From assembly GCA_963814585.1 (NCBI GenBank), contig CAWFDF010000003.1, forward strand, positions 64,001-128,000: a stretch of DNA of 64,000 nucleotides, in the 5' to 3' direction. The DNA is from an uncultured delta proteobacterium. GTDB taxonomy: Bacteria; Myxococcota; Myxococcia; Myxococcales; Anaeromyxobacteraceae. Positions 22,661 to 36,965 of the stretch are shown one piece after another. The notes beneath the pieces are model-generated. The model did not search any database. It was not told the origin of the DNA and saw nothing but the letters and a program-made list of their open reading frames with translations. The translations under genes were made by a program, and so were the position numbers. Numbering within the stretch: position 1 is the stretch's first letter; each line of letters begins with the position of its first letter.

Positions 22661-23908
22661 CTAGAACCTCCACCCCAGGCCGAGGTCGATGGCGTACTGC
22701 GACATGGAGGTCTCGTAGGCGGCCAGCCCCTGCCCGGCCGGGTTGGCGCCCGTGACGGTGACCTGGGGCGAGTACATGCCGCCGACGTTGACGGCCAGCG
22801 TCTCGGTGGCGTCCCAGCCCAGCCCCAGCGTGACGTGGCTCTCGGCCACGGCCGGGAAGGCGATGTTCTCGAAGGCGCGGCCGGGGTCGAGCGGGTTCTT
22901 GCCGTAGTCGAAGCCGGCGCGGACCTTGAGGGCCGGCGTGACCGCGAGCTCGGCGCCGATCTTGTAGACCACCTGATCGTCCCAGCTCATGTCGAAGGGC
23001 ATGGCGCCGGTGGCCGAGGTGTCGTTGGTGTAACCGGGCTCACCCTTCCCCATCACGTCGGACCAGTTGATCCACTGCACGTCGAAGGCCAGCAGCAGGG
23101 CCGGGATGGCGCGCCAGGCGACGCCCGCCGACGCGACGGCGGGCTGGTCGAAGGCGAGCGTGTCGGTCCCGCCGGGGAAGGGGAACGGGCCTCCCGGGGT
23201 CATGCCGGTGTGCGCCGGGATGGCGAACTCGAAGTCCTGGAAGTCGCTCCTGGTCTCGTAGGCGACGCCGAAGGTGAGGTCCTTGGTGGGGGTCACCTTG
23301 ACGCCGAGGGTGGCGCCGTAGCCGAAGGAGCTGGCCGCGTCGTGGGGGACCTGGCCGAAGCCGCTGGCGACGTCGTACTCCATCTGCGCCCAGCTGACGT
23401 TGAGCGTGGCGCCGACGGAGAGGAGATCGCTCGCCCGGTAGGCGATGGCCGGGGCGATCCGGAGGTTCTGGTAGGAGGTGAGGGTGACGCCGCTGTAGAG
23501 GCCCGCCGCGTAGTCGACGCCCATGCCGCCGACGCCGAAGGCGCCGACGCCGGCGGAGAAGCCGCTGCCGAGCGGGATGACCACGCCGAGGTTGGGGATG
23601 GGCGAGCCGCCACGATCCGAGGTGAAGGTGACGCCGTCGCTGGCGTAGCCCGGCGCGACGCCGGTGGCGGTGTACTCGACCGAGGGCTGGAACCAGGTGA
23701 TCGAGAGGTCGAGCCGGCGGCCCAGCTCCGGGATGCCGGCCGGGTTGGTCACGACCGAGCCGGCGTCGAGGGTGGCGCCGACGCCGACGCCGCCCATGCT
23801 GTTCTGCGTCGGGCTGAAGCCGATCATCCGCATGCCGTTGGTGGCGAGGGCGGGCGTCGCGGCGGCCGCGAGCAGGAGCGCCGCGAGGAAGCGAGGAAGC
23901 TGGTTCAT
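22661..23908 (-). CDS. FadL/OmpP1/TodX family outer-membrane transport protein
   Basis: Signal peptide then TNGMRMIGF...SMGGVGVG...NPAG; beta-barrel pattern; terminal WRF. Confidence 0.88.
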   Translation of the reverse strand: MNQLPRFLAALLLAAAATPALATNGMRMIGFSPTQNSMGGVGVGATLDAGSVVTNPAGIPELGRRLDLSITWFQPSVEYTATGVAPGYASDGVTFTSDRGGSPIPNLGVVIPLGSGFSAGVGAFGVGGMGVDYAAGLYSGVTLTSYQNLRIAPAIAYRASDLLSVGATLNVSWAQMEYDVASGFGQVPHDAASSFGYGATLGVKVTPTKDLTFGVAYETRSDFQDFEFAIPAHTGMTPGGPFPFPGGTDTLAFDQPAVASAGVAWRAIPALLLAFDVQWINWSDVMGKGEPGYTNDTSATGAMPFDMSWDDQVVYKIGAELAVTPALKVRAGFDYGKNPLDPGRAFENIAFPAVAESHVTLGLGWDATETLAVNVGGMYSPQVTVTGANPAGQGLAAYETSMSQYAIDLGLGWRF

Positions 23909-23955
23909 GGTGGTCCCCTTCCGGGATGTGCGCGTGATACGGAGTCCAATCACCA

Positions 23956-23971
23956 AGCGCCATTCGTGCCG
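23956..23971 (-). promoter_or_regulatory. sigma54 (-24/-12) promoter for the FadL-like gene
   Basis: Minus strand CGGCAC-GAATG-GCGCT (GG-N10-GC). Confidence 0.6.
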
Positions 23972-24011
23972 AACCCCGCAGGCTGGAAGATCGGGGGCTT
24001 GCGCGGTGCGC

Positions 24012-24052
24012 GTGGCACCGTGAGACGAGACGTCGCGTGCCAACGTCTCACG
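24012..24052. promoter_or_regulatory. candidate enhancer-binding-protein site (GAGAC-N5-GTGCCA inside the inverted repeat cgtgagacg...cgtctcacg)
   Basis: GAGACgtcgcGTGCCA at 24027-24042; the same motif occurs twice at 28308-28347. Confidence 0.55.
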
Positions 24053-24127
24053 AGCGTGCGACGTCGGGGCCGGGCCGAACCCTCCGGCCGCCACCCGGGC
24101 TCTCTCCGGGTAACGGAGGAAGCACCC

Positions 24128-24322: not shown

Positions 24323-24455
24323 CCGGGCGATCGGCCGCCTCGTCTCGCCGCGCCGGGCTCAGGCCCGGGCTGCCGCACCGGGCGCAGGCCACCGCCACCG
24401 CCCGGTAGGCCAGGTCCGCCCCGCACACCAGGCAGCCGCCGGAGTGATCGGTCAC
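24291..24455 (-). pseudogene. truncated DUF5714-like Cys-rich protein (N-terminal Zn-ribbon only)
   Basis: GTG overlaps the rSAM stop; MTDHSGGCLVCGADLAY...CARCG then degenerates and runs into the convergent DUF2892 gene. Confidence 0.55.
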
Positions 24456-26473
24456 GGCGCGTCGCCCAGCCCGTAGAAGCGGGCGCCGAGCCCGTACAGC
24501 TCCCGCACCGGACGGCAGTCGGTCTCCAGGGCCGACCCGGTCCGGTGCCAGGCCACCGCGCCGCAGCCGCCGCCGCACACCGGGGCCAGCTCGCACCCCT
24601 GGCAGCCCGCCATGGCCAGCGTGGTCCGGCCGCTCCAGCGGGCGATGGCCGGCTCGTCGCGGGACGCCTCCGGGAAGAAGGTGCCGAGCCGGTGGGCCGG
24701 GTGGCCCACGGTGGCGGTGCAGCCGAAGACGCCACCCTCGGGCGAGAAGGCCCACTCGGTCTTGGTGGCCGGGCAGGCGTCGAAGTTGGGCGGCGGCAGC
24801 TCGCCGGCCGTCGCCAGGTGGCCGAGGCCGTGGAAGCGGGGCGCGTGGAAGCGGCGCAGCTCGGGGTGGGCCTCGCAGAGCTCGAGGTAGCGGGCCCAGA
24901 GCTCCACCCGGTCGAAGAGGGCGTCGCGGTCCTGCCGGCTGGCGCACCCGAAGAGCTCGTAGTTCCGCCCGATCTGCGTCTTGAAGCGGGAGGCGGGCTG
25001 GTCGAGCCAGCCGCGCGCCGCCGCGAACGACGCCAGCTCCGGCAGCCGCGGCAGGTTCTCCTTGTCGGCCACCACCCGCAGGTTGACCGGGACGCCCGCC
25101 GCGATGAGCGCGTCCACCCCGGCCACGATCCGGTCGAAGCTGCCCGAGCCGTCCTTGTGGGGGCGGCGGGCGTCGTGGAGCCGGCGCGGCCCGTCCAGCG
25201 TCACCTGGACCTCCTTGACCGGGCCGGCGGCCAGCGTGGGGACGAAGGCGGCCAGGTCGTGGCCGTTGGTGACCACCGCCACCTTCATGCCTCGCGCCCG
25301 CGCGCCGTCGAGGAAGCGGCCGATCCGATCGTGGTGGGCCGGCGTGTCGCGCAGCGGCTCGCCGCCGAAGAGGGTCAGGTAGGGCGTGAGCGGGCCACCG
25401 AGGTGGTGCCGATCGACCCAGGCGAAGAGGGCGTCGATGGCCTCGGGCGCCATCAGGCCGGCGCCGGCCGGGTCGAAGAGCTCCTGGTAGCAGTAGGTGC
25501 AGGCCAGGTTGCAGCCGAAGGTCGGCACCACGACGAGCTGCGTCTGGGTCAGCGCCGCCTCGGCACGCCAGGCGGCGACCGCGCCGTCGAGGAGGGCCTG
25601 GTCGGCGGCGGGCGTGTCCACCACGAAGCCGGCCTGGCGCAGGGTGGCCTCCGGCAGCGCGGCGGGGAGCGGCCCGGGGAGCGCGCGCAGGGCCTGGGCG
25701 TCCGCCCGCGAGAGCAGCGCGGCCTGGCCCGAGAGCGGCTGCACCAGCAGGACCTGGTCGCGCCCCGGGACGTCGGCGAGGATGGCGTGTCGGGAGAGGC
25801 GCATCTGGGCTTCCTCGGCGCGGCGCGGGGCGCGCGCCTCCAGGGTGAGGCTGAGAACGCGGACGCCGCCCTTCTCGTAGGGGGCGCTCCGCCCGAGGAC
25901 GCGCACGTCGGTGAGGCCGGCGCCGGACACCGCCGCCAGGTACTCGGCCTCGGTGACGGCGCCGCCGTAGCAGGCGGCCCAGGCGGCCGGATCGGACCGC
26001 ACCGCCTCGGGCAGGACCGCCTCGGAGACGACGTCCGAGACCACCACCCGCCCTCCGGCCGCGAGCAGGCGGGCCACCTCGCGGTAGACGGCCGCCTTGT
26101 CGGGCGCGTGGTTGATGGCGCAGTTGGAGACCACCACGTCGGCGCAGCCCGCCGGCAGCGGCACGGCGGCGAGGTCGCCCTGCACCACCGTGGCGCTCGC
26201 CAGTCCGGCGGTCCGCTGGCGCGCCGCCTCCACCATCCGCGGCGTGGCGTCGACGCCGGTGACGCGCCCGGCCGGCCCGACCAGCGCCGCGGCGCGGACC
26301 AGGTCCCCGCCCCGCCCGCAGCCGAGGTCGACCAGCCGCTCGCCCGGGCGCGGCGCCGCCAGCTCGAGCGCCCCGCCGCAGGAGAGCGAGCCGGCCTCGC
26401 CCGCCAGCGCACCGTACCGGGCGGCCACGGCCTGGCCGATCGGAGTCGTGCTGGCGTCGTCTCGGGTCGGCAT
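24452..26473 (-). CDS. ArsM-like SAM methyltransferase fused in frame to a radical SAM/SPASM peptide-maturase-like enzyme (internal ATG at 25804)
   Basis: MTase: SLSCGG, VDLGCGRG, VVSNCAINHAPDK, WAACYGGA; rSAM: RRE-like N-terminus, CNLACTYC, FGGEP, VQVTLDG; SPASM: CPA..C...CQGC-x5-CGGGC...C. Confidence 0.85.
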   Translation of the reverse strand: MPTRDDASTTPIGQAVAARYGALAGEAGSLSCGGALELAAPRPGERLVDLGCGRGGDLVRAAALVGPAGRVTGVDATPRMVEAARQRTAGLASATVVQGDLAAVPLPAGCADVVVSNCAINHAPDKAAVYREVARLLAAGGRVVVSDVVSEAVLPEAVRSDPAAWAACYGGAVTEAEYLAAVSGAGLTDVRVLGRSAPYEKGGVRVLSLTLEARAPRRAEEAQMRLSRHAILADVPGRDQVLLVQPLSGQAALLSRADAQALRALPGPLPAALPEATLRQAGFVVDTPAADQALLDGAVAAWRAEAALTQTQLVVVPTFGCNLACTYCYQELFDPAGAGLMAPEAIDALFAWVDRHHLGGPLTPYLTLFGGEPLRDTPAHHDRIGRFLDGARARGMKVAVVTNGHDLAAFVPTLAAGPVKEVQVTLDGPRRLHDARRPHKDGSGSFDRIVAGVDALIAAGVPVNLRVVADKENLPRLPELASFAAARGWLDQPASRFKTQIGRNYELFGCASRQDRDALFDRVELWARYLELCEAHPELRRFHAPRFHGLGHLATAGELPPPNFDACPATKTEWAFSPEGGVFGCTATVGHPAHRLGTFFPEASRDEPAIARWSGRTTLAMAGCQGCELAPVCGGGCGAVAWHRTGSALETDCRPVRELYGLGARFYGLGDAP

Positions 26474-26592
26474 GGGGGCCCCTGTTGGAGCCACGGCACG
26501 GGCCCCAGGATTCCGAAGATCGACCCGCCGGGGCCCCACGGCAAGCCGAACCGCGCCGCCGCGGCCGGGCTCACAGGAGCAGGAGGTCCCCC

Positions 26593-26827: not shown

Positions 26828-28294
26828 CTACTCCAGCCCCATGGCGCGCATCCGGCGCCAGAGCGTGCTGCGGCTCAGGCCGAGCGCCCGGGCCGTCTCC
26901 ACCCGGTTCCAGCGGCAAGCCTCCAGGGCGCTCAGGACCGCCGCGCTTTCCTCGGGCGGCACCATCCCGCCCTGGCCGCGCCTCCTCCCCGCCGGCGCGG
27001 CGGCCGGGCCCGGGATCGCGGCGCGCCTCTCGTCCGGCGCGGCCTCGTCGCCGGACCCGGCGCCCTCCAGCACCTCGGGCGGGAGGTCCTCCGGCTGGAT
27101 GGTCTGCCCCTGGCAGACGGTGGCGGCGAACTCGAGCGCGTTCTCCAGCTCGCGGACGTTGCCCGGCCACGGGTGGGAGAGCAGGACCCTCACCGCCTCG
27201 GGCGAGAAGCGCAGGGCCCGGCCGGTGCGCGCGCCGGCCTTGCCGAGCAGCAGCCGGGCGATGGGCTCGATGTCCTCCCGCCGGTCGCGCAGGCGCGGCA
27301 CCTCGATGGGGAAGACGCGCAGCCGGTAGTAGAGGTCCTCGCGGAACTGGCCGTCGGCCACCGCCTTGCGCAGGTTCCGGTTGGTGGCGGCGATGATCCG
27401 GGCGTTGGTCCGGCGGGACTGGCTGTCGCCCACCCGCTCGAAGGTGTGCTCCTGCAGGACGCGCAGCAGCTTGACCTGGAGGTGGAGGGGCACGTCGCCG
27501 ACCTCGTCGAGGAAGAGCGTGCCGTCGTTGGCGGTCTCGAAGCGCCCGGCCCGATCCTTCACCGCGCCGGTGAAGGCGCCGCGGACGTGGCCGAAGAGCT
27601 CGCTCTCCAGCAGCTCGCCCGGCAGGGCGGCGGCGTTGACCGCCACGAACGGGCCGCTCCGGCGCGGAGAGTGGGCGTGGATGATGCGGGCCATGACCTC
27701 CTTGCCCGTGCCGCTGTCGCCGGTGATCAGGACCGTCGACTCGCTCTGCTGCAAGGTGTCGATGAGCCGGAAGACCCGCCCCATCGCCTTGGAGCGGCCG
27801 ATCAGGCCGAAGCCGCCGATGGGACCGCTGGCCTCCTCGGTGGCCTCGTCGGCGGGGCGCAGCACCACCAGGTAGCGGGCCTCCGGGTCGCACACCCCGA
27901 GGCGATCCCGCAGCAGCGGCGCGGCAGACACCGACATGAGCCGGGCCGGACCCTCCGGGCCCTGGAGCACGGCCCGCCAGCCCTCCCGCTTCTCGCCGGC
28001 CAGCAGCGCCAGCCGCAGCGGGCCCTCGGCGCCGAAGAGCTCCGGACCGAGCAGGGCCTCCACCGGGTGGTCTCGCGCGGCGGCCGCGGCGACCGGTCCG
28101 AGGAGCGTGTCGAGCAGCTCCGAGGCGTAGCGGACGCGGAACTGGCCGTCGAGCGCCATGCAGACCCGCCCCAGCGAGCCGAAGGCGGCGTTGACGGCCG
28201 CGAAGGCCCGCTCGTGGTCGGTGGCGTCGGCGGCGCATGCCGGGGTGGATGCTGACCGGGAGGCGGAGTCCGCGGCGGCGAGGTCGGTGGTCAC
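26828..28294 (-). CDS. sigma54-dependent enhancer-binding protein (PAS-like + AAA+ + Fis HTH)
   Basis: GDSGTGKE, ESELFGHVRGAFTGA, LFLDEVGD, FREDLYYRL, WPGNVRELEN, ARALGLSRSTLWRRM. Confidence 0.95.
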   Translation of the reverse strand: MTTDLAAADSASRSASTPACAADATDHERAFAAVNAAFGSLGRVCMALDGQFRVRYASELLDTLLGPVAAAAARDHPVEALLGPELFGAEGPLRLALLAGEKREGWRAVLQGPEGPARLMSVSAAPLLRDRLGVCDPEARYLVVLRPADEATEEASGPIGGFGLIGRSKAMGRVFRLIDTLQQSESTVLITGDSGTGKEVMARIIHAHSPRRSGPFVAVNAAALPGELLESELFGHVRGAFTGAVKDRAGRFETANDGTLFLDEVGDVPLHLQVKLLRVLQEHTFERVGDSQSRRTNARIIAATNRNLRKAVADGQFREDLYYRLRVFPIEVPRLRDRREDIEPIARLLLGKAGARTGRALRFSPEAVRVLLSHPWPGNVRELENALEFAATVCQGQTIQPEDLPPEVLEGAGSGDEAAPDERRAAIPGPAAAPAGRRRGQGGMVPPEESAAVLSALEACRWNRVETARALGLSRSTLWRRMRAMGLE

Positions 28295-28476: not shown

Positions 28477-29919
28477 ATGGCCGAAGGGACGACCCCCCCG
28501 AAGAAGAAGAGCGCCTGGCTGGTGGGCGCGGTGCTGCTCCTCGTCGTGCTCGGCGGCGTCTCCCTGGCGCGGGCGCTGCGGGGCGCCCCGGTCGTCGAGA
28601 CCCGCGCCGCCGGCTTCTCACGCAAGGTGCGGCCCCACTTCGATCACGCCCCGGTGATCAGCGGCCCGTTCGCGACCCCCCAGGCCGTGACGCACCGCTG
28701 CCTGGAGTGCCACCCGAAGGCGGCCGAGGTGATGAGGTCCTCGCACTTCCAGTGGCTGGGCGAGGAGGTCGAGGTGCTGGGCCACGCCGGGAAGACCCGC
28801 ATCGGCAAGAAGAACGTCATCAACAACTTCTGCATCGCCACCGCCGGCAACGAGCGGTCCTGCATGAAGTGCCACGCCGGGTACGGCTGGCTCGACGCCA
28901 GCTTCGACTTCAAGAACCCCGACAACGTCGACTGCCTGGTCTGCCACGAGGGGACCAACGGCTACGTGAAGGGCGTGGGCGGCATCCCCACCAAGGAGAC
29001 CGACCTGGTGGCCGCGGCCCGCTCGGTCGGCACGCCGCGCCGGGAGAACTGCCTCGGCTGCCACGCCTACGGCGGCGGCGGCCAGGCGGTGAAGCACGGC
29101 GACCTCGACTCCTCGCTGGCGCACCCCTTCGAGGAGGAGGACGTCCACATCGGCCGGCACCAGTTCCTCTGCGTCGACTGCCACCAGGCGCCGGACCACC
29201 AGATCCAGGGGCGGGCCTTCTCGGTCAGCGTGGAGGACTCGCACGGCGTGGCCTGCACCGACTGCCACCGCGTGCCGGAGCACCGGGACGAGCGGCTCAA
29301 CAGGCACCTGGCCGCCGTGGCCTGCCAGACCTGCCACATCCCCGACTACGCCGGGAAGATCCCCACCAAGGCCACCTGGGACTGGAGCAAGGCCGGCGAC
29401 AGGAACCGGCCCGAGGATCCGCACCGCTACCTCAAGATCAAGGGCGAGTTCTCCTACGAGCAGGACGCGCAGCCGCAGTATCGCTGGTTCAACGGCACGG
29501 TGGGGCGCTACCTGCTGGGCGACAAGATCGACCCGAAGCAGGTGACCGTCCTCAACCCGCCGCAGGGCACCATCGCCGACAAGAAGGCCCGCATCTGGCC
29601 GTTCAAGATCCACCACGCCAGGCAGCCCTATGACGCCGGCCACGACTACCTCTTCCCACCGGTCACCGGCGGGCCCGGCGGCTACTGGACCACCTTCGAC
29701 TGGGACAGCGCCTTCCGGCTGGGCGCCGCGGCGTCGAACATCGCCTACAGCGGCAAGTTCGGCTTCGCGCCGACCGACATGTACTGGCCGCTCTCCCACA
29801 TGGTGGCGCCCAAGGAGAAGGCCCTGGCCTGCACCGACTGCCACGGCGATCGCCCGCGCCTCGACTGGAAGGCGCTGGGCTACGCCGGAGACCCCATCAA
29901 GACCGGAGGCCGCCCGTGA
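28477..29919 (+). CDS. otr: octaheme tetrathionate reductase family cytochrome c
   Basis: 8 CxxCH; VINNFC...CMKCHAGYGW; ATWDWSKAG; IWPFKIH..RQPYD; YWPLSHMVAPKEKALAC. Confidence 0.9.
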   Translation: MAEGTTPPKKKSAWLVGAVLLLVVLGGVSLARALRGAPVVETRAAGFSRKVRPHFDHAPVISGPFATPQAVTHRCLECHPKAAEVMRSSHFQWLGEEVEVLGHAGKTRIGKKNVINNFCIATAGNERSCMKCHAGYGWLDASFDFKNPDNVDCLVCHEGTNGYVKGVGGIPTKETDLVAAARSVGTPRRENCLGCHAYGGGGQAVKHGDLDSSLAHPFEEEDVHIGRHQFLCVDCHQAPDHQIQGRAFSVSVEDSHGVACTDCHRVPEHRDERLNRHLAAVACQTCHIPDYAGKIPTKATWDWSKAGDRNRPEDPHRYLKIKGEFSYEQDAQPQYRWFNGTVGRYLLGDKIDPKQVTVLNPPQGTIADKKARIWPFKIHHARQPYDAGHDYLFPPVTGGPGGYWTTFDWDSAFRLGAAASNIAYSGKFGFAPTDMYWPLSHMVAPKEKALACTDCHGDRPRLDWKALGYAGDPIKTGGRP

Positions 29920-32171
29920 AGCGCCCGTCCCTCCTCCTCCTGCTGGCGCTGGCCGCCGCGCCCGGGGCCCGGGCCCAGCAGGCCGTCAACCCCATCCACC
30001 CGGTCTTCGCCCCGCTCGACGCCGCCGGCCACAAGGTCCGGGAGGCCGCCAGGGTCTCGCCCGACGCCACCTGCGGCGCCTGTCACGACGCGCCGTGGAT
30101 CGGCGCCCACACCGGCCATCCGGCCGACAAGGTGAAGGCCACCTGCGTCCAGTGCCACCTCGACGGCGGCAGGCTGGACGTACGGCCCGGCACGCTCGAC
30201 GCCGAGGGGCGGCTCACCCGCCAGGCCATCCGCATCGGCACGCCGCGCGCCGCCAACTGCGCCGGCTGCCACGGGGTGGTCTCCGACGGCTCCACCCCCG
30301 TGGTGCTGCCCGAGTCCTTCGAGGCGGCCGAGAAGGCCCCGGGGCAGTCCTTCACCATCACCCAGGGCGAAGGGGCGGTGGTGGCCCCGCAGCGGATGGC
30401 CGACTCCTTCCTGAACCTGGAGGGGAAGGCCGACCTGGCCTCACCCTGGGACGTCCACGCCGCCAAGCTGGTCGACTGCGTCGGCTGCCACCACGCCGCC
30501 AACGACCCCGGCCGGGTCGACGGCAAGCACGCCAGCCTGGTCTACCTGACCGCCGACCCGCGCCGCCCCAGCACCTCCGAGTTCCTGGTGCGCCCCGACC
30601 ATCGGCTGGCCGAGCCGTCCTGCCGCGGCTGCCACGACCCCTTCAAGGCGCACCGGTTCCTGCCCTACCGGGAGCGGCACATGGCGGTGGTGGCCTGCCA
30701 GGCCTGCCACCTCGCCTCGCCCACCGGGCCGGCCGTGGAGATGTTCGACGCCACCGTGGTCACGGCGGCCGGCACGCCGGCCATCCGGTACCGGAACGTG
30801 GAGCGCCGGCCCGGCGAGCCGCTCAACGCCGCCACCATCCGGCCCTTCCGTCCGCTCCTCGTCGAGCGGCGCGAGCGCGACGGCGTCACGCGGCTGGCCC
30901 CCGTCAACCCGGTGAGCCGCTTCCGCTGGGTCTCCGGGCCGGATCGCGTCGAGGTCCCGTGGAAGGTGGTGTCCATGGTCTTCCTGCAGGGCCAGGCCTA
31001 CGCCCCCGCCATCCTCGAGGCCTTCGACGCCGACCGCGACGGCCGGCTGGACGAGCGCGAGCTGCGCCTCGACTCCAGGTCCAAGACCGAGCTGGTGGCG
31101 AGCCGCCTCTGGGCGGCCGGCGTGGTCGAGCCGACCATCGAGGGGATGCTCGATCCCATCCCCCTGGCCCACGGCGTCCCGACGCGCGACCGGGCCCTGC
31201 GCGACTGCCAGGGCTGCCACTCCGGCGACTCCCGCCTCTCCGAGCCCTTCGTCATCGCCGGCTACCTCCCCGGCGGCACGCCCCCCCGGCCCCGGGAGGG
31301 GGCGCGCGTCGAGCTGGCCGGCCTGCTGGACCACGGCAGCGACGGGGCGCTGATCCTGTGGCGCGATCGCCAGGTGGCGCCCGGCGGCCTCCACGTGCTG
31401 GGCCACTCCAGGCAGGCCTTGACCAACACCGTCGGCTTCTTCCTCTTCGTGGCCACCTTCCTGGGCGTCGTGGCCCACGGCCTGACGCGCTGGGCGCTGC
31501 GGCGGCGCCGGGCGCCCCAGGAGGCGCACCCCTCCGGCGCCCCGTCCTACCTCTTCGGCCGCTACGAGCGGATCTGGCACTGGACCATGGCGCTGGCCGG
31601 CGTGCTGCTCATCGTCAGCGGCCTGGAGATCCACAACGCCGGCGCGCACTGGCTGCTGGACCTGCCGAAGGCGGTCTCGCTCCACAACGCCTTCGCGGTG
31701 GTGCTCATGCTGAACGCCGGCCTGGCGCTCTTCTACCACCTGACCAACCGGGCCATCCGCAACTTCATCCCGGCGCCGCACGGGCTGGCCGCCCGCGTGC
31801 TGGAGCACCTGGACTACCAGTCGCGCGGGATCTTCTTCGGCGGGCCGCACCCGGCCAACGCGCCGGGACACAAGCTCAACCCGCTGCAGCAGCTCACCTA
31901 CCTGGCGCTGCTCAACCTGCTCTTCCCGCTCCAGATCGTCACCGGCCTGCTCATCTGGGCCACCGGAACCTGGCCGGCGGTGGGCGCCGCCCTGGGCGGG
32001 CTCTCGGTGATCGCGCCGCTGCACAACGCCGGCTCGTGGCTCTTCCTCTCCTTCTTCGTGCTGCACGTCTACCTGGTCACCACCGGGCGGACCCCGACCC
32101 ACCACCTCGCCCCGATGATCACCGGCTACGGCACCCTCGAGTCCGAGGAGCCCGCGGCCGAGCGGAGCTGA
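29916..32171 (+). CDS. heptaheme OTR-like cytochrome c fused to a cytochrome b (FdnI/HydC-like) membrane domain
   Basis: Signal peptide, 7 CxxCH, EF-hand-like DADRDGRLDERE, then YERIWHW...SLHN...KLNPLQQLTY...LHN...LHVYL. Confidence 0.85.
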   Translation: MKRPSLLLLLALAAAPGARAQQAVNPIHPVFAPLDAAGHKVREAARVSPDATCGACHDAPWIGAHTGHPADKVKATCVQCHLDGGRLDVRPGTLDAEGRLTRQAIRIGTPRAANCAGCHGVVSDGSTPVVLPESFEAAEKAPGQSFTITQGEGAVVAPQRMADSFLNLEGKADLASPWDVHAAKLVDCVGCHHAANDPGRVDGKHASLVYLTADPRRPSTSEFLVRPDHRLAEPSCRGCHDPFKAHRFLPYRERHMAVVACQACHLASPTGPAVEMFDATVVTAAGTPAIRYRNVERRPGEPLNAATIRPFRPLLVERRERDGVTRLAPVNPVSRFRWVSGPDRVEVPWKVVSMVFLQGQAYAPAILEAFDADRDGRLDERELRLDSRSKTELVASRLWAAGVVEPTIEGMLDPIPLAHGVPTRDRALRDCQGCHSGDSRLSEPFVIAGYLPGGTPPRPREGARVELAGLLDHGSDGALILWRDRQVAPGGLHVLGHSRQALTNTVGFFLFVATFLGVVAHGLTRWALRRRRAPQEAHPSGAPSYLFGRYERIWHWTMALAGVLLIVSGLEIHNAGAHWLLDLPKAVSLHNAFAVVLMLNAGLALFYHLTNRAIRNFIPAPHGLAARVLEHLDYQSRGIFFGGPHPANAPGHKLNPLQQLTYLALLNLLFPLQIVTGLLIWATGTWPAVGAALGGLSVIAPLHNAGSWLFLSFFVLHVYLVTTGRTPTHHLAPMITGYGTLESEEPAAERS

Positions 32172-32173
32172 CC

Positions 32174-32698
32174 ATGGCCACCAGCAAGGAACCCCGTCCC
32201 TACCTGAACCCGTACCTGGCCGGAACGCTGCTCGGCGTGGTGCTCTTCCTCAGCTTCTACACCACCGGGGGCGGGCTGGGCGCCTCGGCGGCCCTCTCGC
32301 ACATCCAGGCCGGCGTCCTCGACTGGATCGCCCCGGCCCACGTGGACCGGACCGCCTACTTCGCCGAGATGGCCGGCGGCAGCCGCAACACCTGGGACTA
32401 CTCGGGCGTCTACATGCTGGTGGGCGCGCTGGTCGGCGGCCTGGTCTCGGGGCTCGTCAACCGGCGCGTCAAGCTGGAGCTCCGCAAGGGGCCGAGCATC
32501 TCGACGCCGACGCGGGTGGTCTTCGCCCTGCTGGGCGGGGCCATCATGGGCTACGGCGCGCGGCTGGCCCGCGGCTGCACCTCCGGCCAGGCCCTCTCCG
32601 GCGGCGCGGTGCTGTCGGTGGGCAGCTGGGCCTTCGCCCTCTCCATCTTCGCGGCCGGCTACGCCATGGCGTGGTTCGTCCGCCGCCTCTGGAACTGA
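32174..32698 (+). CDS. YeeE/YedE sulfur-compound transporter, half 1
   Basis: PYLNPYLAG, GLGAS, GGAIMGYGARLARGCTSGQALSG. Confidence 0.9.
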   Translation: MATSKEPRPYLNPYLAGTLLGVVLFLSFYTTGGGLGASAALSHIQAGVLDWIAPAHVDRTAYFAEMAGGSRNTWDYSGVYMLVGALVGGLVSGLVNRRVKLELRKGPSISTPTRVVFALLGGAIMGYGARLARGCTSGQALSGGAVLSVGSWAFALSIFAAGYAMAWFVRRLWN

Positions 32699-32710: not shown

Positions 32711-34033
32711 ATGGCCCCTTACGACCTCTCCAGCCTCGCCGGCACCGTGGCCAGCGCGCTGGTCTTCGGCTCCCTCGGCTTCGGCTTCGGCCTCGCGCTC
32801 GAGCTGGGCGGCTTCGGCGACACCCGGAAGCTGGCAGCGCAGTTCTACCTGAAGGACATGACGGTGCTGAAGGTGATGTTCACGGGCATCGTGGTGGCGG
32901 CCGTGCTGGTGGCCGGCGCCACCGGCTTCGGCCTCCTCGACATGAGCCGGGTCTGGGTCAACCCGACCTATCTGTGGCCCGGCATCGTCGGCGGCCTGAT
33001 CATGGGCGTGGGCTTCGTGCTGGGCGGCTTCTGCCCCGGCACCACGCTGGTGGCCACCGCCACCCTCAAGATCGACGGCATGCTGTTCCTGCTGGGCGCG
33101 CTCGTCGGGGTCTGGCTCTTCGGCGAGACGGTGGGCAGCTACGAGACCTTCTTCATCTCCTCCAACCTGGGGCGCTTCACGCTACCCGAGTGGCTGGGCC
33201 TGCCGCTGGGCGTGACCGTGCTGCTGGTGGTGGTCATGGCGCTGCTGCTCTTCTGGGGCGGCGAGCTGGCCGAGCAGGTCTTCGGCCGCGGCCGGCGCTG
33301 GGCCGAGGTCTCGCTGCGGCCCAGCCGGCCGCTGACGCTGGTGGGGGCCGGCCTGCTGCTGGCGAGCGTGGTGGTGATGGCCAAGGGCCAGCCCACCCCG
33401 GCGCAGAAGTTCGACCTGCTCGGCCCCGAGGCGCGGCGCCCCGTGGAGGAGCGCGGCGTCTTCGTCCACCCGGCCGAGGTGGTGGCGCTCAAGGACGACG
33501 TCAGCGTGCGGGTCGACATCCTCGACCTCCGCGACGAGCACGACTTCAACCTGTTCCACCTGGGCGGGTCCCGCCGCGTCGACGCGGCGGCGCTGCTGAA
33601 GGCAGGCCAGCTCCAGGAGCTGCTGGCGCAGCCCGGCAGCGCGGTGACCTTCCTGGTCGGCACCGGGGAGGCCCAGGCCCTGGCCACCTGGAAGGAGCTC
33701 AAGGCCCAGGGCGTCGGCAACCTCTACGTCATCGAGGGCGGCATCGACCACTGGCTCGAGCTCTACCCGGCCCCCTCCTGCGTGGCCGAGCGGGTCGCGT
33801 CCAACGACGCCGGCCCGGCCGGCTGGCGCTTCGCCTACGCCACCGGCGACAACCTGCCGTCCGCCTGGCCGGAGCTGCAGAGCTCCCGCGGCTTCCGCTC
33901 GCCCTGCCAGCTGGCCGTCTCCACCGCGGAGGGGCACGAGGGCGGCCACGGGGGGGTGGCCTGGCCCACCTACCAGTTCACCCGCAAGGTGAAGCTGCAG
34001 AGCAAGGCGGCCGTGAAGGGCGGGTGCGGGTAG
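32711..34033 (+). CDS. YeeE/YedE transporter half 2 fused to a rhodanese-like domain with C-terminal GGCG
   Basis: GFGFGLALE, DMTVLKVMFTGI, GGFCPGT; ILDLRDEHDFNLFHL...LYVIEGGIDHW; ends KVKLQSKAAVKGGCG*. Confidence 0.88.
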   Translation: MAPYDLSSLAGTVASALVFGSLGFGFGLALELGGFGDTRKLAAQFYLKDMTVLKVMFTGIVVAAVLVAGATGFGLLDMSRVWVNPTYLWPGIVGGLIMGVGFVLGGFCPGTTLVATATLKIDGMLFLLGALVGVWLFGETVGSYETFFISSNLGRFTLPEWLGLPLGVTVLLVVVMALLLFWGGELAEQVFGRGRRWAEVSLRPSRPLTLVGAGLLLASVVVMAKGQPTPAQKFDLLGPEARRPVEERGVFVHPAEVVALKDDVSVRVDILDLRDEHDFNLFHLGGSRRVDAAALLKAGQLQELLAQPGSAVTFLVGTGEAQALATWKELKAQGVGNLYVIEGGIDHWLELYPAPSCVAERVASNDAGPAGWRFAYATGDNLPSAWPELQSSRGFRSPCQLAVSTAEGHEGGHGGVAWPTYQFTRKVKLQSKAAVKGGCG

Positions 34034-34120: not shown

Positions 34121-34456
34121 TCACGCCAGCAGCGCCTCGACCGCCTTGACGATGGCGCCGGATCCGATCTGGCCGCCGGTGTGGCGCGGCGCCGCCTCGG
34201 CGCCGCCGCGGAAGAAGAGGAGCGTGGGGCTGCCGAGGACGCCGAGCTCGGTGGCCAGCTCCCGGTTCCCCTGCCGGAAGACCTTCACGAAGCGGGCTCG
34301 GCCGGCCAGCGCGGCCGCCGCCGCCTCGAGGCGCGGGGCCAGCGCCTCGCAGGGTGGGCACTCGGAGGAGTAGAAGTCGACGACGACCGGCTCCCCGGCG
34401 TCGAGGACCTCGCGCTGCCAGTCAGCGGCCTGGATCTCCTTCACGTTGGCGGCCAT
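34121..34456 (-). CDS. thioredoxin family protein (atypical FYSSECPPC)
   Basis: VVVDFYSSECPPCEALAP...GVLGSPTLLFFRGG. Confidence 0.85.
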   Translation of the reverse strand: MAANVKEIQAADWQREVLDAGEPVVVDFYSSECPPCEALAPRLEAAAAALAGRARFVKVFRQGNRELATELGVLGSPTLLFFRGGAEAAPRHTGGQIGSGAIVKAVEALLA

Positions 34457-35017: not shown

Positions 35018-35401
35018 ATGGGATTTCTCGACAAGCTCTTCGGCCCCAGGACCCCGAGGGTCCAGCCCGTCCACGTCACCGACGAGAACTTCATCGACGA
35101 GGTGGCGCGCTCGACGCTGCCGGTGGTGCTCGACGTCTGGAGCCCGGGGTGCGGTCCCTGCGCCATGCTGGAGCCGATCGTCATGGACCTGGCCACCGAC
35201 TACCAGGGGCGGGTCCGGGTCGCCGAGATGAACGCCGCCGAGGCCGTGGAGTACGCCGCCCGGCTCGGGGTGATGGGCACTCCCACCGTCCTCTTCCTCA
35301 GAGGCGGGCGCGAGGTGCACCGGGTGGCCGGCTTCGTCGGCTCGCGCTACCTGCGCGAGGTGGTGGAGGCGGAGCTGCTGGGCGAGAGCCCGGCGGCCTG
35401 A
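35018..35401 (+). CDS. thioredoxin
   Basis: VTDENFIDEV...LDVWSPGCGPC...GVMGTPT. Confidence 0.9.
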   Translation: MGFLDKLFGPRTPRVQPVHVTDENFIDEVARSTLPVVLDVWSPGCGPCAMLEPIVMDLATDYQGRVRVAEMNAAEAVEYAARLGVMGTPTVLFLRGGREVHRVAGFVGSRYLREVVEAELLGESPAA

Positions 35402-35564
35402 GCCGCTCCGCGCTGGCGGGGAGTTGGAACCTGCCCGGTCTCCAGATGGTGGCGCCCTGCCGCGCGCCCCCAATGTCCACGAGCCGACCCGCCCGGTCCA
35501 GGCCGGTCACCAGGCCGGCGGGCTAGACTCGGGCGGCTGGCGGTCGAGCCTGGGGAGGAACCAC

Positions 35565-36965
35565 ATGGACACGTCCGAGAGTGACCTCCTCCGCCACCCG
35601 CTCAGCCTGGCTGGCGCCGCCCTCGCCACCGTCTGCGGGTCCCTGGTGGCCGTGTTCTTCGTCGCTTCGATGGCCGGCTACGAAGGGAACCCCTACCAGG
35701 GAATGGTGGTCTTCGTCGTCGGCCCCTCGCTGATGGTGGTCGGGCTGCTGCTCGTCCCTCTGGGCGCCTGGCGCGAGCGTCGCCGCCTGGTCCGCCTGGC
35801 GGCCAGCGGCGGCGTCGAGTCGCCGCTCCCGGTCGTCGACCTCAACTCCCCGCGCACCCGGAAGCTCGGCCTGGCCTTCCTCGCGCTCACCACCGTCAAC
35901 CTGCTGCTGCTCGCGGCCGCCTCGTACAAGGGGCTGGAGGTCATGGACTCCTCTGCCTTCTGCGGCTCATGCCACTCCGTCATGGACCCCGAGGCCTCGG
36001 CCCACGCCCGCTCGCCCCACGCCCGCGTCCGCTGCGTGGAGTGCCACATCGGCCCCGGGGCCGGCTGGTTCGTGAAGTCCAAGCTCTCCGGCTCCTGGCA
36101 GCTGGTCTCGGTGATGTTCCACCTCTACCCGCGCCCCATCCCCACCCCGGTCCACGCCCTGCGCCCGGCGCGCGACACCTGCGAGCAGTGCCACTGGCCG
36201 ACCAAGTTCGTGGGCGACCGGCTCCAGGTCATCACCCACCACGCCGACGACGCGCCCTCCACGCCGCTCAAGACGGTCCTGCTGGTCCACGTCGGCGGCG
36301 CGCAGGGCGTCTCCTCCCGCGGGATCCACTGGCACGTCGACCAGGGCGTGAGGCTCCGCTACCAGGCCGATGAGCGCCGGGAGAACATCTCCGCGGTCGA
36401 GCTGACCACCTCCGACGGCCCACCGCAGCGCTGGGAGGTGGCCGGGGCTGCCGCCGCGGGCGGGACCTGGCGCGAGATGGACTGCATCGACTGCCACAAC
36501 CGTCCCACCCACGTGTACCGGACCCCCGAGGACGAGGTGGATGCGGCCCTCCTGCACGGCCGGCTCGACCCGCGGCTCCCCTTCCTCCGGCGCGAGGCCG
36601 TCAAGGCGCTCCGCGTCGAGTACCCGGGCCAGGCGGCCGCCCTGGCCGGGCTGCGCGATTCGCTCCGCTCCTTCTACGCCGGCCAGCCGCTCCCGGCCGG
36701 CGTCGCCTCCGCCGCGCTCCTCGACGCGGCCGCCACCGAGCTGGCCGCCATCTGGGGCCGCAACGTCTGGCCGCAGATGAAGATCGCCTGGGGCACCTAC
36801 CCGACCTTCCTCGGCCACGAGCAGGCGCCAGGCTGCCTCCGCTGCCACGATGGCGACCACGCCACGCGCGAGGGCAAGGCCATCTCCGGCGACTGCGACC
36901 TGTGCCACACGATCCTGGCGCAGGAGGAGAAGGACCCGGCCATCCTCAAGCAGCTGGCGCCCTGA
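35565..36965 (+). CDS. membrane-anchored NapC/NirT-like multiheme cytochrome c (6 CxxCH)
   Basis: 3 TM helices; FCGSCH, CVECHIGPG, CEQCH, CIDCH, CLRCH, CDLCH. Confidence 0.85.
   Translation: MDTSESDLLRHPLSLAGAALATVCGSLVAVFFVASMAGYEGNPYQGMVVFVVGPSLMVVGLLLVPLGAWRERRRLVRLAASGGVESPLPVVDLNSPRTRKLGLAFLALTTVNLLLLAAASYKGLEVMDSSAFCGSCHSVMDPEASAHARSPHARVRCVECHIGPGAGWFVKSKLSGSWQLVSVMFHLYPRPIPTPVHALRPARDTCEQCHWPTKFVGDRLQVITHHADDAPSTPLKTVLLVHVGGAQGVSSRGIHWHVDQGVRLRYQADERRENISAVELTTSDGPPQRWEVAGAAAAGGTWREMDCIDCHNRPTHVYRTPEDEVDAALLHGRLDPRLPFLRREAVKALRVEYPGQAAALAGLRDSLRSFYAGQPLPAGVASAALLDAAATELAAIWGRNVWPQMKIAWGTYPTFLGHEQAPGCLRCHDGDHATREGKAISGDCDLCHTILAQEEKDPAILKQLAP

Follow-up and report, generated by a model that had tools for sequence, protein, structure and literature searches.

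SoxY is a periplasmic carrier that holds sulfur intermediates on the cysteine of a Gly-rich C-terminal "swinging arm", and in lucinid symbionts a divergent soxY adjoins otr, the gene of octahaem tetrathionate reductase (OTR) (PMC11237559). In the channel protein YeeE, the N terminus lies outside, the loops bearing C22 and C91 are cytoplasmic and helix H7 reverses the topology (PMC7449682), while a cysteine of YeeD acts as a "fourth cysteine" at the cytoplasmic exit (PMC11073785). PmpAB/YedE1E2, the split form of such channels, is presented in PMC11582611 and PMC10812762 as proteins of ~130-140 amino acids with four helices and no added domain, and YedE1E2 imports zero-valent sulfur via two essential cysteines (PMC10812762). 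It has been proposed, so far without proof, that persulfidated SoxYZ passes sulfur on to the YeeE-like SoxT1A (PMC11582611). Here we describe a gene, termed the arm gene, of an uncultured Anaeromyxobacteraceae bacterium, lying in the window, that is, the whole 64,000-nucleotide stretch of DNA that was analysed. Its product combines the N-terminal half of a split YeeE with a rhodanese domain devoid of its active-site cysteine and a tail ending in GGCG, the last two predicted to be periplasmic, and we consider it fairly likely that the tail is a tethered sulfur-carrier arm.

The arm gene is a forward-strand open reading frame (ORF) at 32711..34033 that encodes 440 amino acids and has the C-terminal end ..KVKLQSKAAVKGGCG*; its G+C content at third codon positions is 0.99, as in a real gene, in a window with 75% G+C. 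The protein is laid out as a YeeE/YedE N-terminal half, two extra membrane helices, a Cys-less rhodanese fold and a tail running to KGGCG. The Sulf_transp family (Pfam PF04143) matches residues 35-224 with 54.7 bits against a cut-off of 27, and because this match spans only positions 4-193 of the 310 in the profile, the channel part corresponds to the N-terminal half of YeeE. The Rhodanese family (Pfam PF00581) matches residues 254-350 with 32.8 bits against a cut-off of 22.2. The parts of the gene are as follows.

32711..33385, forward strand: YeeE N-terminal half, residues 1-225, with helices equivalent to H1-H7 and an extra membrane helix at 206-225
33032-33034, forward strand: channel Cys108 in GGFCPGT, invariant in alignments A1, A2 and A4
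33470..33760, forward strand: Cys-less rhodanese-fold domain, residues 254-350, predicted periplasmic (PF00581, structure match 3foj_A)
33761..34030, forward strand: C-terminal tail, residues 351-440, mostly without regular secondary structure
34019-34030, forward strand: terminal GGCG, with Cys439 at 34025-34027

The initial annotation of this DNA had read the gene as a YeeE transporter fused to a rhodanese without an active-site cysteine. The missing cysteine is borne out, as the loop after strand 311-316 reads ..TFLVGTGE.. and contains none. The fusion is also real, but it does not involve a whole YeeE: only the N-terminal half is fused, the other half being a separate gene at 32174-32698. 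In the arm protein, the loop where YeeE carries C22 reads ELGGFGD, and the C22-equivalent cysteine is absent. A conserved basic stretch, [FY]xxKVKLxxK.., lies ahead of the terminal GGCG, and two further cysteines of the tail, C357 and C399, are confined to a close clade. No Pfam family matched any of 11 arm-protein tails past the rhodanese edge.

Conservation of the terminal cysteine among homologues is far beyond chance. KGGCG ends 119 of the 120 listed best homologues (63-91% identity), the lone exception (P0104) having a different, Arg/Pro-rich and frameshift-like tail. A search at the level of 50%-identity clusters, with one representative per cluster, gave 1495 matches at E up to 1e-3; among the best 150, which were examined, 81 of the 88 representatives of 370-460 amino acids have a cysteine within the last 3 residues, in tails of the types GGCG (38), GGC (19), EGC (10), GGCS (4) and others (10), and at least three of the seven without it have frameshift-like tails. 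Lastly, the cysteine is present in 78 of 80 genome loci spanning Myxococcota, Chloroflexota, Bacteroidota/Ignavibacteria, Acidobacteriota, Gemmatimonadota, Eisenbacteria, Spirochaetes and Xanthomonadales/Lysobacterales, with the remaining two ending at a contig edge (L008) or in a frameshift-like tail (L013). These loci were found with a 20-row alignment; genome and metagenome searches together gave ~1,200 loci. The three counts are unbiased, whereas the invariance of C439 in alignment A1 is by construction, its rows having been chosen for possessing the cysteine, and the relatives are not independent observations. Thus the terminal GGCG, whose conservation among homologues the initial annotation had proposed to check, is kept across phyla in respect of its cysteine, down to ~30% identity, and is always preceded by the basic stretch. 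The rhodanese catalytic position, Gly/Thr in the window's protein, is a cysteine in only 2 of 86 aligned relatives, and in 58 of the 86 the terminal cysteine is the sole one after the last membrane helix (helix 6).

A structure model of the arm protein computed with AlphaFold2 (AF2) from 86 sequences (mean predicted local distance difference test score, pLDDT, 91.0) contains six long helices (residues 6-32, 51-72, 88-105, 121-148, 166-192 and 206-225) followed by the rhodanese domain and a mostly irregular tail, in which segment 421-430 has a confidence of 96 and the last ten residues one of 63. Using VIA-align, model residues 15-184 were superimposed on residues 1-181 of solved YeeE, 6lep_A (Z 9.0, root-mean-square deviation (rmsd) 2.9 A, 162 aligned), and the rhodanese domain on 3foj_A (Z 11.2, rmsd 2.2 A, 100 aligned); the model also matched the YeeE-YeeD complex 8j4c. 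The YeeE match was seen only with VIA-align; a Foldseek search of the whole model against the PDB gave rhodanese matches only, none at E <=0.001. In the ESM Atlas, all clusters matching the periplasmic part are 180-212 amino acids long and either unnamed or labelled "rhodanese". Positions 18-108 of the family profile align with residues 4-91 of 6leo, which makes C108 the equivalent of C91.

Since the N terminus of YeeE is outside, six membrane helices would place the C-terminal domain outside as well; helix 5 of the arm protein equals H7 and ends inside, and helix 6 (206-225) would therefore return the chain to the periplasm. In 85 of 86 sequences, loops 1, 3 and 5 exceed the N terminus and loops 2 and 4 in lysine plus arginine, loop 5 having a mean of 4.26. 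In 11 genomes of a phylum sample of 151 genomes, the counts from which were read by eye from two tables, the rhodanese-arm part is a separate stretch adjoining the YeeE half, and the three stand-alone forms inspected, at loci L090, L092 and L093, resemble signal-anchored proteins at the N terminus, where a few basic residues precede a hydrophobic run, and have GGCG or GSCG as their last residues. Short database hits (P0180 and others), the N termini of which are too mixed with fragments, were left out of this topology. On these grounds, we predict that the rhodanese domain and arm share the periplasm with the cytochromes encoded upstream, a placement that the initial annotation had singled out for checking; there they would sit above an outward-facing cysteine loop of the small subunit described below.

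The arm gene is the last of four genes in the same strand, following an OTR-family cytochrome, a haem c/b membrane protein and the small YeeE half; the two cytochrome genes upstream are spaced by a 4-base overlap or a 2-base gap.

28477..29919, forward strand: OTR-family octahaem c-type cytochrome with 8 CXXCH (TIGR04315, 523.5 bits, cut-off 375; E 5.3e-135 to Shewanella OTR, 1sp3_A)
29916..32171, forward strand: haem c/b membrane electron-transfer protein with a signal peptide, 7 CXXCH and a C-terminal cytochrome b561-type domain
32174..32698, forward strand: small subunit, the YeeE C-terminal half (PmpA/YedE1-like), starting with ATG at 32174 (PF04143, 72.8 bits, profile positions 177-308 of 310)

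The OTR-family protein probably starts with the Met at 28477, after which a hydrophobic signal or anchor follows, a longer ORF from 28237 being probably over-extended. The haem c/b protein matches PF01292 (72.7 bits, residues 547-737), and the best NCBIfam match of its b part is the PhsC-type NF011582 (thiosulfate-reductase cytochrome b), which at 97 bits stays below the cut-off of 204. In the small subunit, the cysteine of the ..ARGCTSGQ.. loop, predicted from the YeeE structure to face the periplasm, is kept in at least 95% of 78 sequences. With the channel halves on two adjacent genes, the system is of the split PmpAB/YedE1E2 kind, the arm gene being the PmpB-like half with additions.

This arrangement is conserved. 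At 79 of the 80 genome loci the gene immediately before the arm gene is the small YeeE half; an OTR gene occurs upstream at 64 and one for the haem c/b protein at 61. Where OTR is missing (16 loci), the upstream DNA is always shorter than 3.9 kb. In 12 Bacteroidota-type loci the intervening haem c/b gene is missing, and a 630-amino-acid multihaem protein with a cytochrome b-like domain is encoded downstream. At L090, L092 and L093, from other Myxococcota, both fusions of the operon are undone, haem c and cytochrome b as well as YeeE N-half and rhodanese-arm being separate genes. No further gene is broadly conserved in the 80 loci, in which ArsR-type regulators occur 26 times and MarR-type 6 times. 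Viewed from the cytochrome, 19 of the 23 OTR matches of at least 509 bits in the phylum sample have an arm gene on the same contig within ~6 kb, and none of the seven at 392-440 bits has a linked one.

As an observation on OTR itself, alignment A3 (55 cassette-linked homologues) contains a conserved GKKNxINNFC motif in which G110, K111, N116, N117 and the non-haem Cys119 are invariant. Cys119 is a candidate for a second reactive thiol, on the enzyme side.

The same arm is found in other settings. Another genome of the family has a paralogous cassette (L091, G134:C1:3003500-3010000), which comprises a small half, a 245-amino-acid N-half that keeps helix 6 and lacks rhodanese and arm, a 101-amino-acid protein ending in GGC, and a divergent octahaem cytochrome (167 bits to TIGR04315).

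2278-2583 of L091, reverse strand: 101-amino-acid secreted protein with a classical signal peptide, ending FFKKAGGC, between the YeeE N-half and the octahaem cytochrome

The AF2 model of this protein (pLDDT 81.7) is an OB fold. All 120 of its listed homologues have a cysteine within the last three residues, in the tails AGGC (60), AAGC (33), PGGC (18), GGCS (6) and others (3). It has a weak match to ExtJ, from the selenite/tellurite operon of Geobacter (E 1.3e-4, 22.3 bits, cut-off 52.5), and it was not found in the window's own genome.

A sister clade was sampled by a metagenome scan with the distant "EGC" subfamily (80 loci, L094-L173). The small half is upstream in 77 of the 80; the rhodanese-arm part is usually a separate ORF, and most of these end in KKKKEGC, RRRGC or RRRAC. 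Upstream DNA reaches 4.5 kb or more at 23 sister loci; in 16 of them a PhsA-like molybdopterin oxidoreductase, a 4Fe-4S subunit and an NrfD-type anchor are encoded directly upstream (e.g. L132, 3009-8642), the best match of the molybdoenzyme being thiosulfate reductase PhsA (494 bits, below the cut-off of 694). Six of the 23 have a two-domain rhodanese upstream, five of these six with a class-V aminotransferase downstream. Consequently, of the initial annotation's proposal that the arm connects octahaem enzymes with the transporter, the linkage to OTR stands (64 of 80 loci), but not its specificity, as the sister clades lie beside PhsA-like molybdoenzymes or rhodanese/aminotransferase genes. 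The constant unit is split YeeE, a periplasmic Cys-less rhodanese and a terminal cysteine, and the variable partner is a periplasmic sulfur-compound reductase of two unrelated kinds.

The arm resembles that of SoxY in its last residues: SoxY genes in genomes of the same family end ..KEIKVTLGGCGG (GGCGG), compared with ..KVKLQSKAAVKGGCG in the arm protein. In contrast to SoxY, the arm protein has no match to PF13501 at E up to 1, and neither has any of 11 tails at E up to 10, a profile that finds true SoxY in 5 of the 151 phylum genomes. Its tail is mostly coil on a rhodanese fold instead of a beta-sandwich, and the protein is membrane-tethered, fused to a channel half, and has a basic spacer of 6-8 residues before GGCG. 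The view of the tail as a SoxY homologue was rejected for lack of a PF13501 match, in the whole protein or the 11 tails; thus the "SoxY-like arm" of the initial annotation holds for the final residues but not for fold or family. The arm likely works as that of SoxY does, by analogy and without homology. No SoxY gene was found in the window's genome (91.7% complete), in which SoxZ, SoxXA and SoxB were not searched for.

With YeeE/TsuA, the system shares the Sulf_transp fold and, in C108, the match to C91 of the solved protein; it differs in having no single chain with both halves (nine helices) and three relay cysteines, and in being embedded in a respiratory cytochrome operon. PmpAB/YedE1E2 likewise consists of two adjacent genes with one half and one conserved cysteine each, an adjacency seen here in 79/80 and 77/80 loci, but the large subunit of the arm system has 440 amino acids, six helices (two extra), a rhodanese domain and a tail. 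Like the cysteine of YeeD, that of the arm would be an accessory one extending the relay; unlike in YeeD/TsuB, where it is on the inner side on a TusA fold, it is predicted on the outer side on a rhodanese scaffold. The rhodanese sulfurtransferases share the fold but not, with the arm protein, the catalytic cysteine at the start of the active-site loop. Sud of Wolinella is a periplasmic polysulfide-sulfur transferase that serves polysulfide reductase and carries sulfur on its rhodanese active-site cysteine. The family profile matches Sud (PDB 1qxn, 1qxn_A) at E 1.8e-7, and the sister clade adjoins Phs/Psr-like enzymes; the arm protein differs from Sud in lacking the active-site cysteine, in having its sole conserved cysteine at the C terminus, and in being tethered to or fused with a channel half. 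The neighbouring cytochrome is a clear member of the OTR family of Shewanella (TIGR04315, 1sp3) with eight CXXCH, and represents a subclade locked to split YeeE and the Cys arm. Full-text searches, without subscription journals and supplements, found no paper on an OTR-YeeE cassette or on a YeeE-linked rhodanese with a C-terminal Cys arm; PMC11237559 is the sole paper found to mention both "octaheme tetrathionate reductase" and "YeeE", at unrelated loci.

We propose the following mechanism for the tethered sulfur-carrier arm. The haem b/c protein would relay electrons from the quinol pool to OTR, which would reduce an oxidised sulfur compound such as tetrathionate, thiosulfate or polysulfide. 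The arm thiolate, presumably kept reactive and anion-friendly by the neighbouring Lys and Arg residues, would carry sulfur as a persulfide or S-thiosulfonate, and by swinging it could present sulfur to OTR and/or give it to the outer channel cysteine of the small subunit, from where a Cys-to-Cys relay of the kind proposed for YeeE-YeeD and YedE1E2 would take it via Cys108 into the cytoplasm. This would make the arm an outer "zeroth cysteine", with the rhodanese fold as a docking scaffold only. Such an outer relay cysteine mirrors the inner "fourth cysteine" of YeeD and fits the two-cysteine import by YedE1E2, the SoxYZ-SoxT1A proposal and the presence of soxY beside otr. A complex prediction for OTR residues 40-480 with arm-protein residues 226-440 from paired 55-row alignments gave scores of 0.30 and 0.01 against a mark of 0.32, in runs without controls, and these values weigh neither way on binding. 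More tentatively, the arm may belong to a widespread and undescribed class of periplasmic sulfur carriers, in which a basic-Gly-Gly-Cys arm on unrelated scaffolds (Cys-less rhodanese, OB fold) is wired to split YeeE; the physiological substrate of OTR and of the Phs/Psr-like clade might then be arm-bound sulfur instead of a free ion, handed from reductase to importer on three cysteines.

Several points weigh against this proposal. OTR is present at none of the 80 sister-clade loci, and since the arm is kept in clades without a nearby OTR, OTR is not its sole or defining partner. Conversely, the top-scoring TIGR04315 copies of OTR (two, in genome G047, 38% identical to that of the window) adjoin only cytochrome b, and as they lack YeeE and arm, OTR enzymes can work without the arm. 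Locus L034 has 3.2 kb of DNA upstream, and neither cytochrome is present in it. The periplasmic topology is a prediction from homology, AF2 secondary structure and the positive-inside rule, and we infer the direction of electron and sulfur flow, the species carried, the sulfur on Cys439 and the contact between arm and OTR.

The absence of OTR from the sister clade would be expected if the arm served the channel alone, capturing free anionic sulfur (thiosulfate, polysulfide) for the outer channel cysteine while OTR or Phs/Psr merely produced it in solution. Arm and Cys-less rhodanese do stay with split YeeE in OTR-free clades (0/80), in three gene contexts, no neighbour but the small YeeE half is constant (79/80; 77/80), and a basic stretch before the cysteine suits the capture of anions. 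We nevertheless regard this reading as unlikely, given the periplasmic reductase that is tightly linked in the operons of both large clades (64/80; 16/23), the free and secreted paralogous GGC protein encoded between a channel half and an octahaem cytochrome, which suits a shuttle over a fixed gate, and the SoxY genes that adjoin otr elsewhere (PMC11237559). The terminal cysteine might alternatively be a redox gate that carries no substrate and closes or regulates the transporter, according to the periplasmic redox state, through a disulfide with the outward-facing channel cysteine. Both cysteines are conserved and predicted on the same side, and solved YeeE crystals formed a C22-C91 disulfide (PMC7449682), but such a gate leaves unexplained both the GGC protein with an OB fold that the paralogous cassette encodes in a free, secreted form and the constant pairing with sulfur-compound reductases, and appears quite improbable.

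A selenium system, in which the octahaem cytochrome reduces selenite, the arm cysteine carries a selenotrisulfide-type adduct and the YedE-like channel imports it, is very doubtful. In its favour, the small half matches the YedE/FdhT model for selenium (42.9 bits) equally well as that for TsuA (41.6 bits), each score being under its cut-off, the 101-amino-acid GGC protein has its weak match to ExtJ, the Geobacter ext operon also contains a rhodanese-like protein and multihaem cytochromes (PMC5877670), and the window's genome has selD. However, no selD over cut-off is present in 6 of the 20 cassette genomes of the phylum sample, three of these being of family f12, so that a selenium link via co-occurrence with selD was not supported; selD is common in the phylum anyway (79/151), and the sister clade pairs the module with PhsA-like enzymes. 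Extremely unlikely, in our estimate, is a cytoplasmic role in which rhodanese domain and arm replace YeeD/TusA as acceptor at the inner exit of the channel. Natural YeeE-YeeD fusions exist in which the YeeD cysteine accepts thiosulfate on the cytoplasmic face (PMC11073785), and the arm gene is closely followed by two genes for thioredoxins that lack signal peptides; yet the mapping onto the YeeE structure together with six helices gives a C terminus outside, with which the charge counts agree (85/86), the stand-alone forms have a signal-anchor and the paralogous GGC protein a classical signal peptide, and the thioredoxins are not conserved neighbours (weak matches in 7/80 loci).

The window contains the following further genes near the cassette.

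22661-24094, reverse strand: outer-membrane channel of the FadL/TodX type, ~4 kb away from the cassette (Toluene_X, 95.5 bits)
24452-26539, reverse strand: 695-amino-acid fusion of class I S-adenosylmethionine (SAM) methyltransferase and radical SAM domains, between the outer-membrane channel gene and the sigma-54 activator
26828..28294, reverse strand: sigma-54 activator, divergently transcribed (PF00158, 237.8 bits), near the cassette in 5/80 loci, all close relatives
34121-34456, reverse strand, and 35018-35401, forward strand: thioredoxin genes (CPPC, CGPC) without signal peptides, downstream of the arm gene
35424-36965, forward strand: membrane-anchored NapC/NirT-like cytochrome (six CXXCH, a long additional domain), not a conserved neighbour of the cassette

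The sigma-54 activator is possibly a regulator of the cassette, in the close relatives only; in its place, other clades carry genes of the ArsR or MarR type. A FadL/TodX-type gene is beside the cassette in 6 of the 80 loci and directly upstream of OTR in Ignavibacteria-type loci, and through this channel a hydrophobic sulfur species, S8 for example, might enter. The thioredoxins were considered as part of the system and rejected, as they have no signal peptide with the likely start and their matches in the seven loci are distant as well as weak. Elsewhere in the genome, selD (G000:C12:177802-178728, reverse strand) contains a single in-frame TGA; many relatives share this codon, which points to selenocysteine in SelD.

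OTR-type cytochromes reduce tetrathionate, nitrite and hydroxylamine in vitro, and their physiological role is uncertain (as cited in PMC11237559 and PMC7887784). In this subclade, a function of OTR in sulfur chemistry is favoured by the conserved operon, which joins it to a sulfur channel and a Cys arm, the latter being a candidate substrate carrier. In sulfur oxidisers, the entry of periplasmic carrier-bound sulfur into YeeE-type channels is an open question (PMC11582611), and with carrier and channel on one polypeptide the arm protein is a natural fusion for the study of this hand-off. Current genome annotations label the homologues "rhodanese-related sulfurtransferase" or "YeeE/YedE family", and thereby miss both the dead rhodanese site and the real reactive cysteine. 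Lastly, if one type of arm is carried by SoxY, Cys-less rhodanese and OB fold alike, scaffolds that are unrelated to one another, this would be a clear example of convergence on a swinging-arm carrier.

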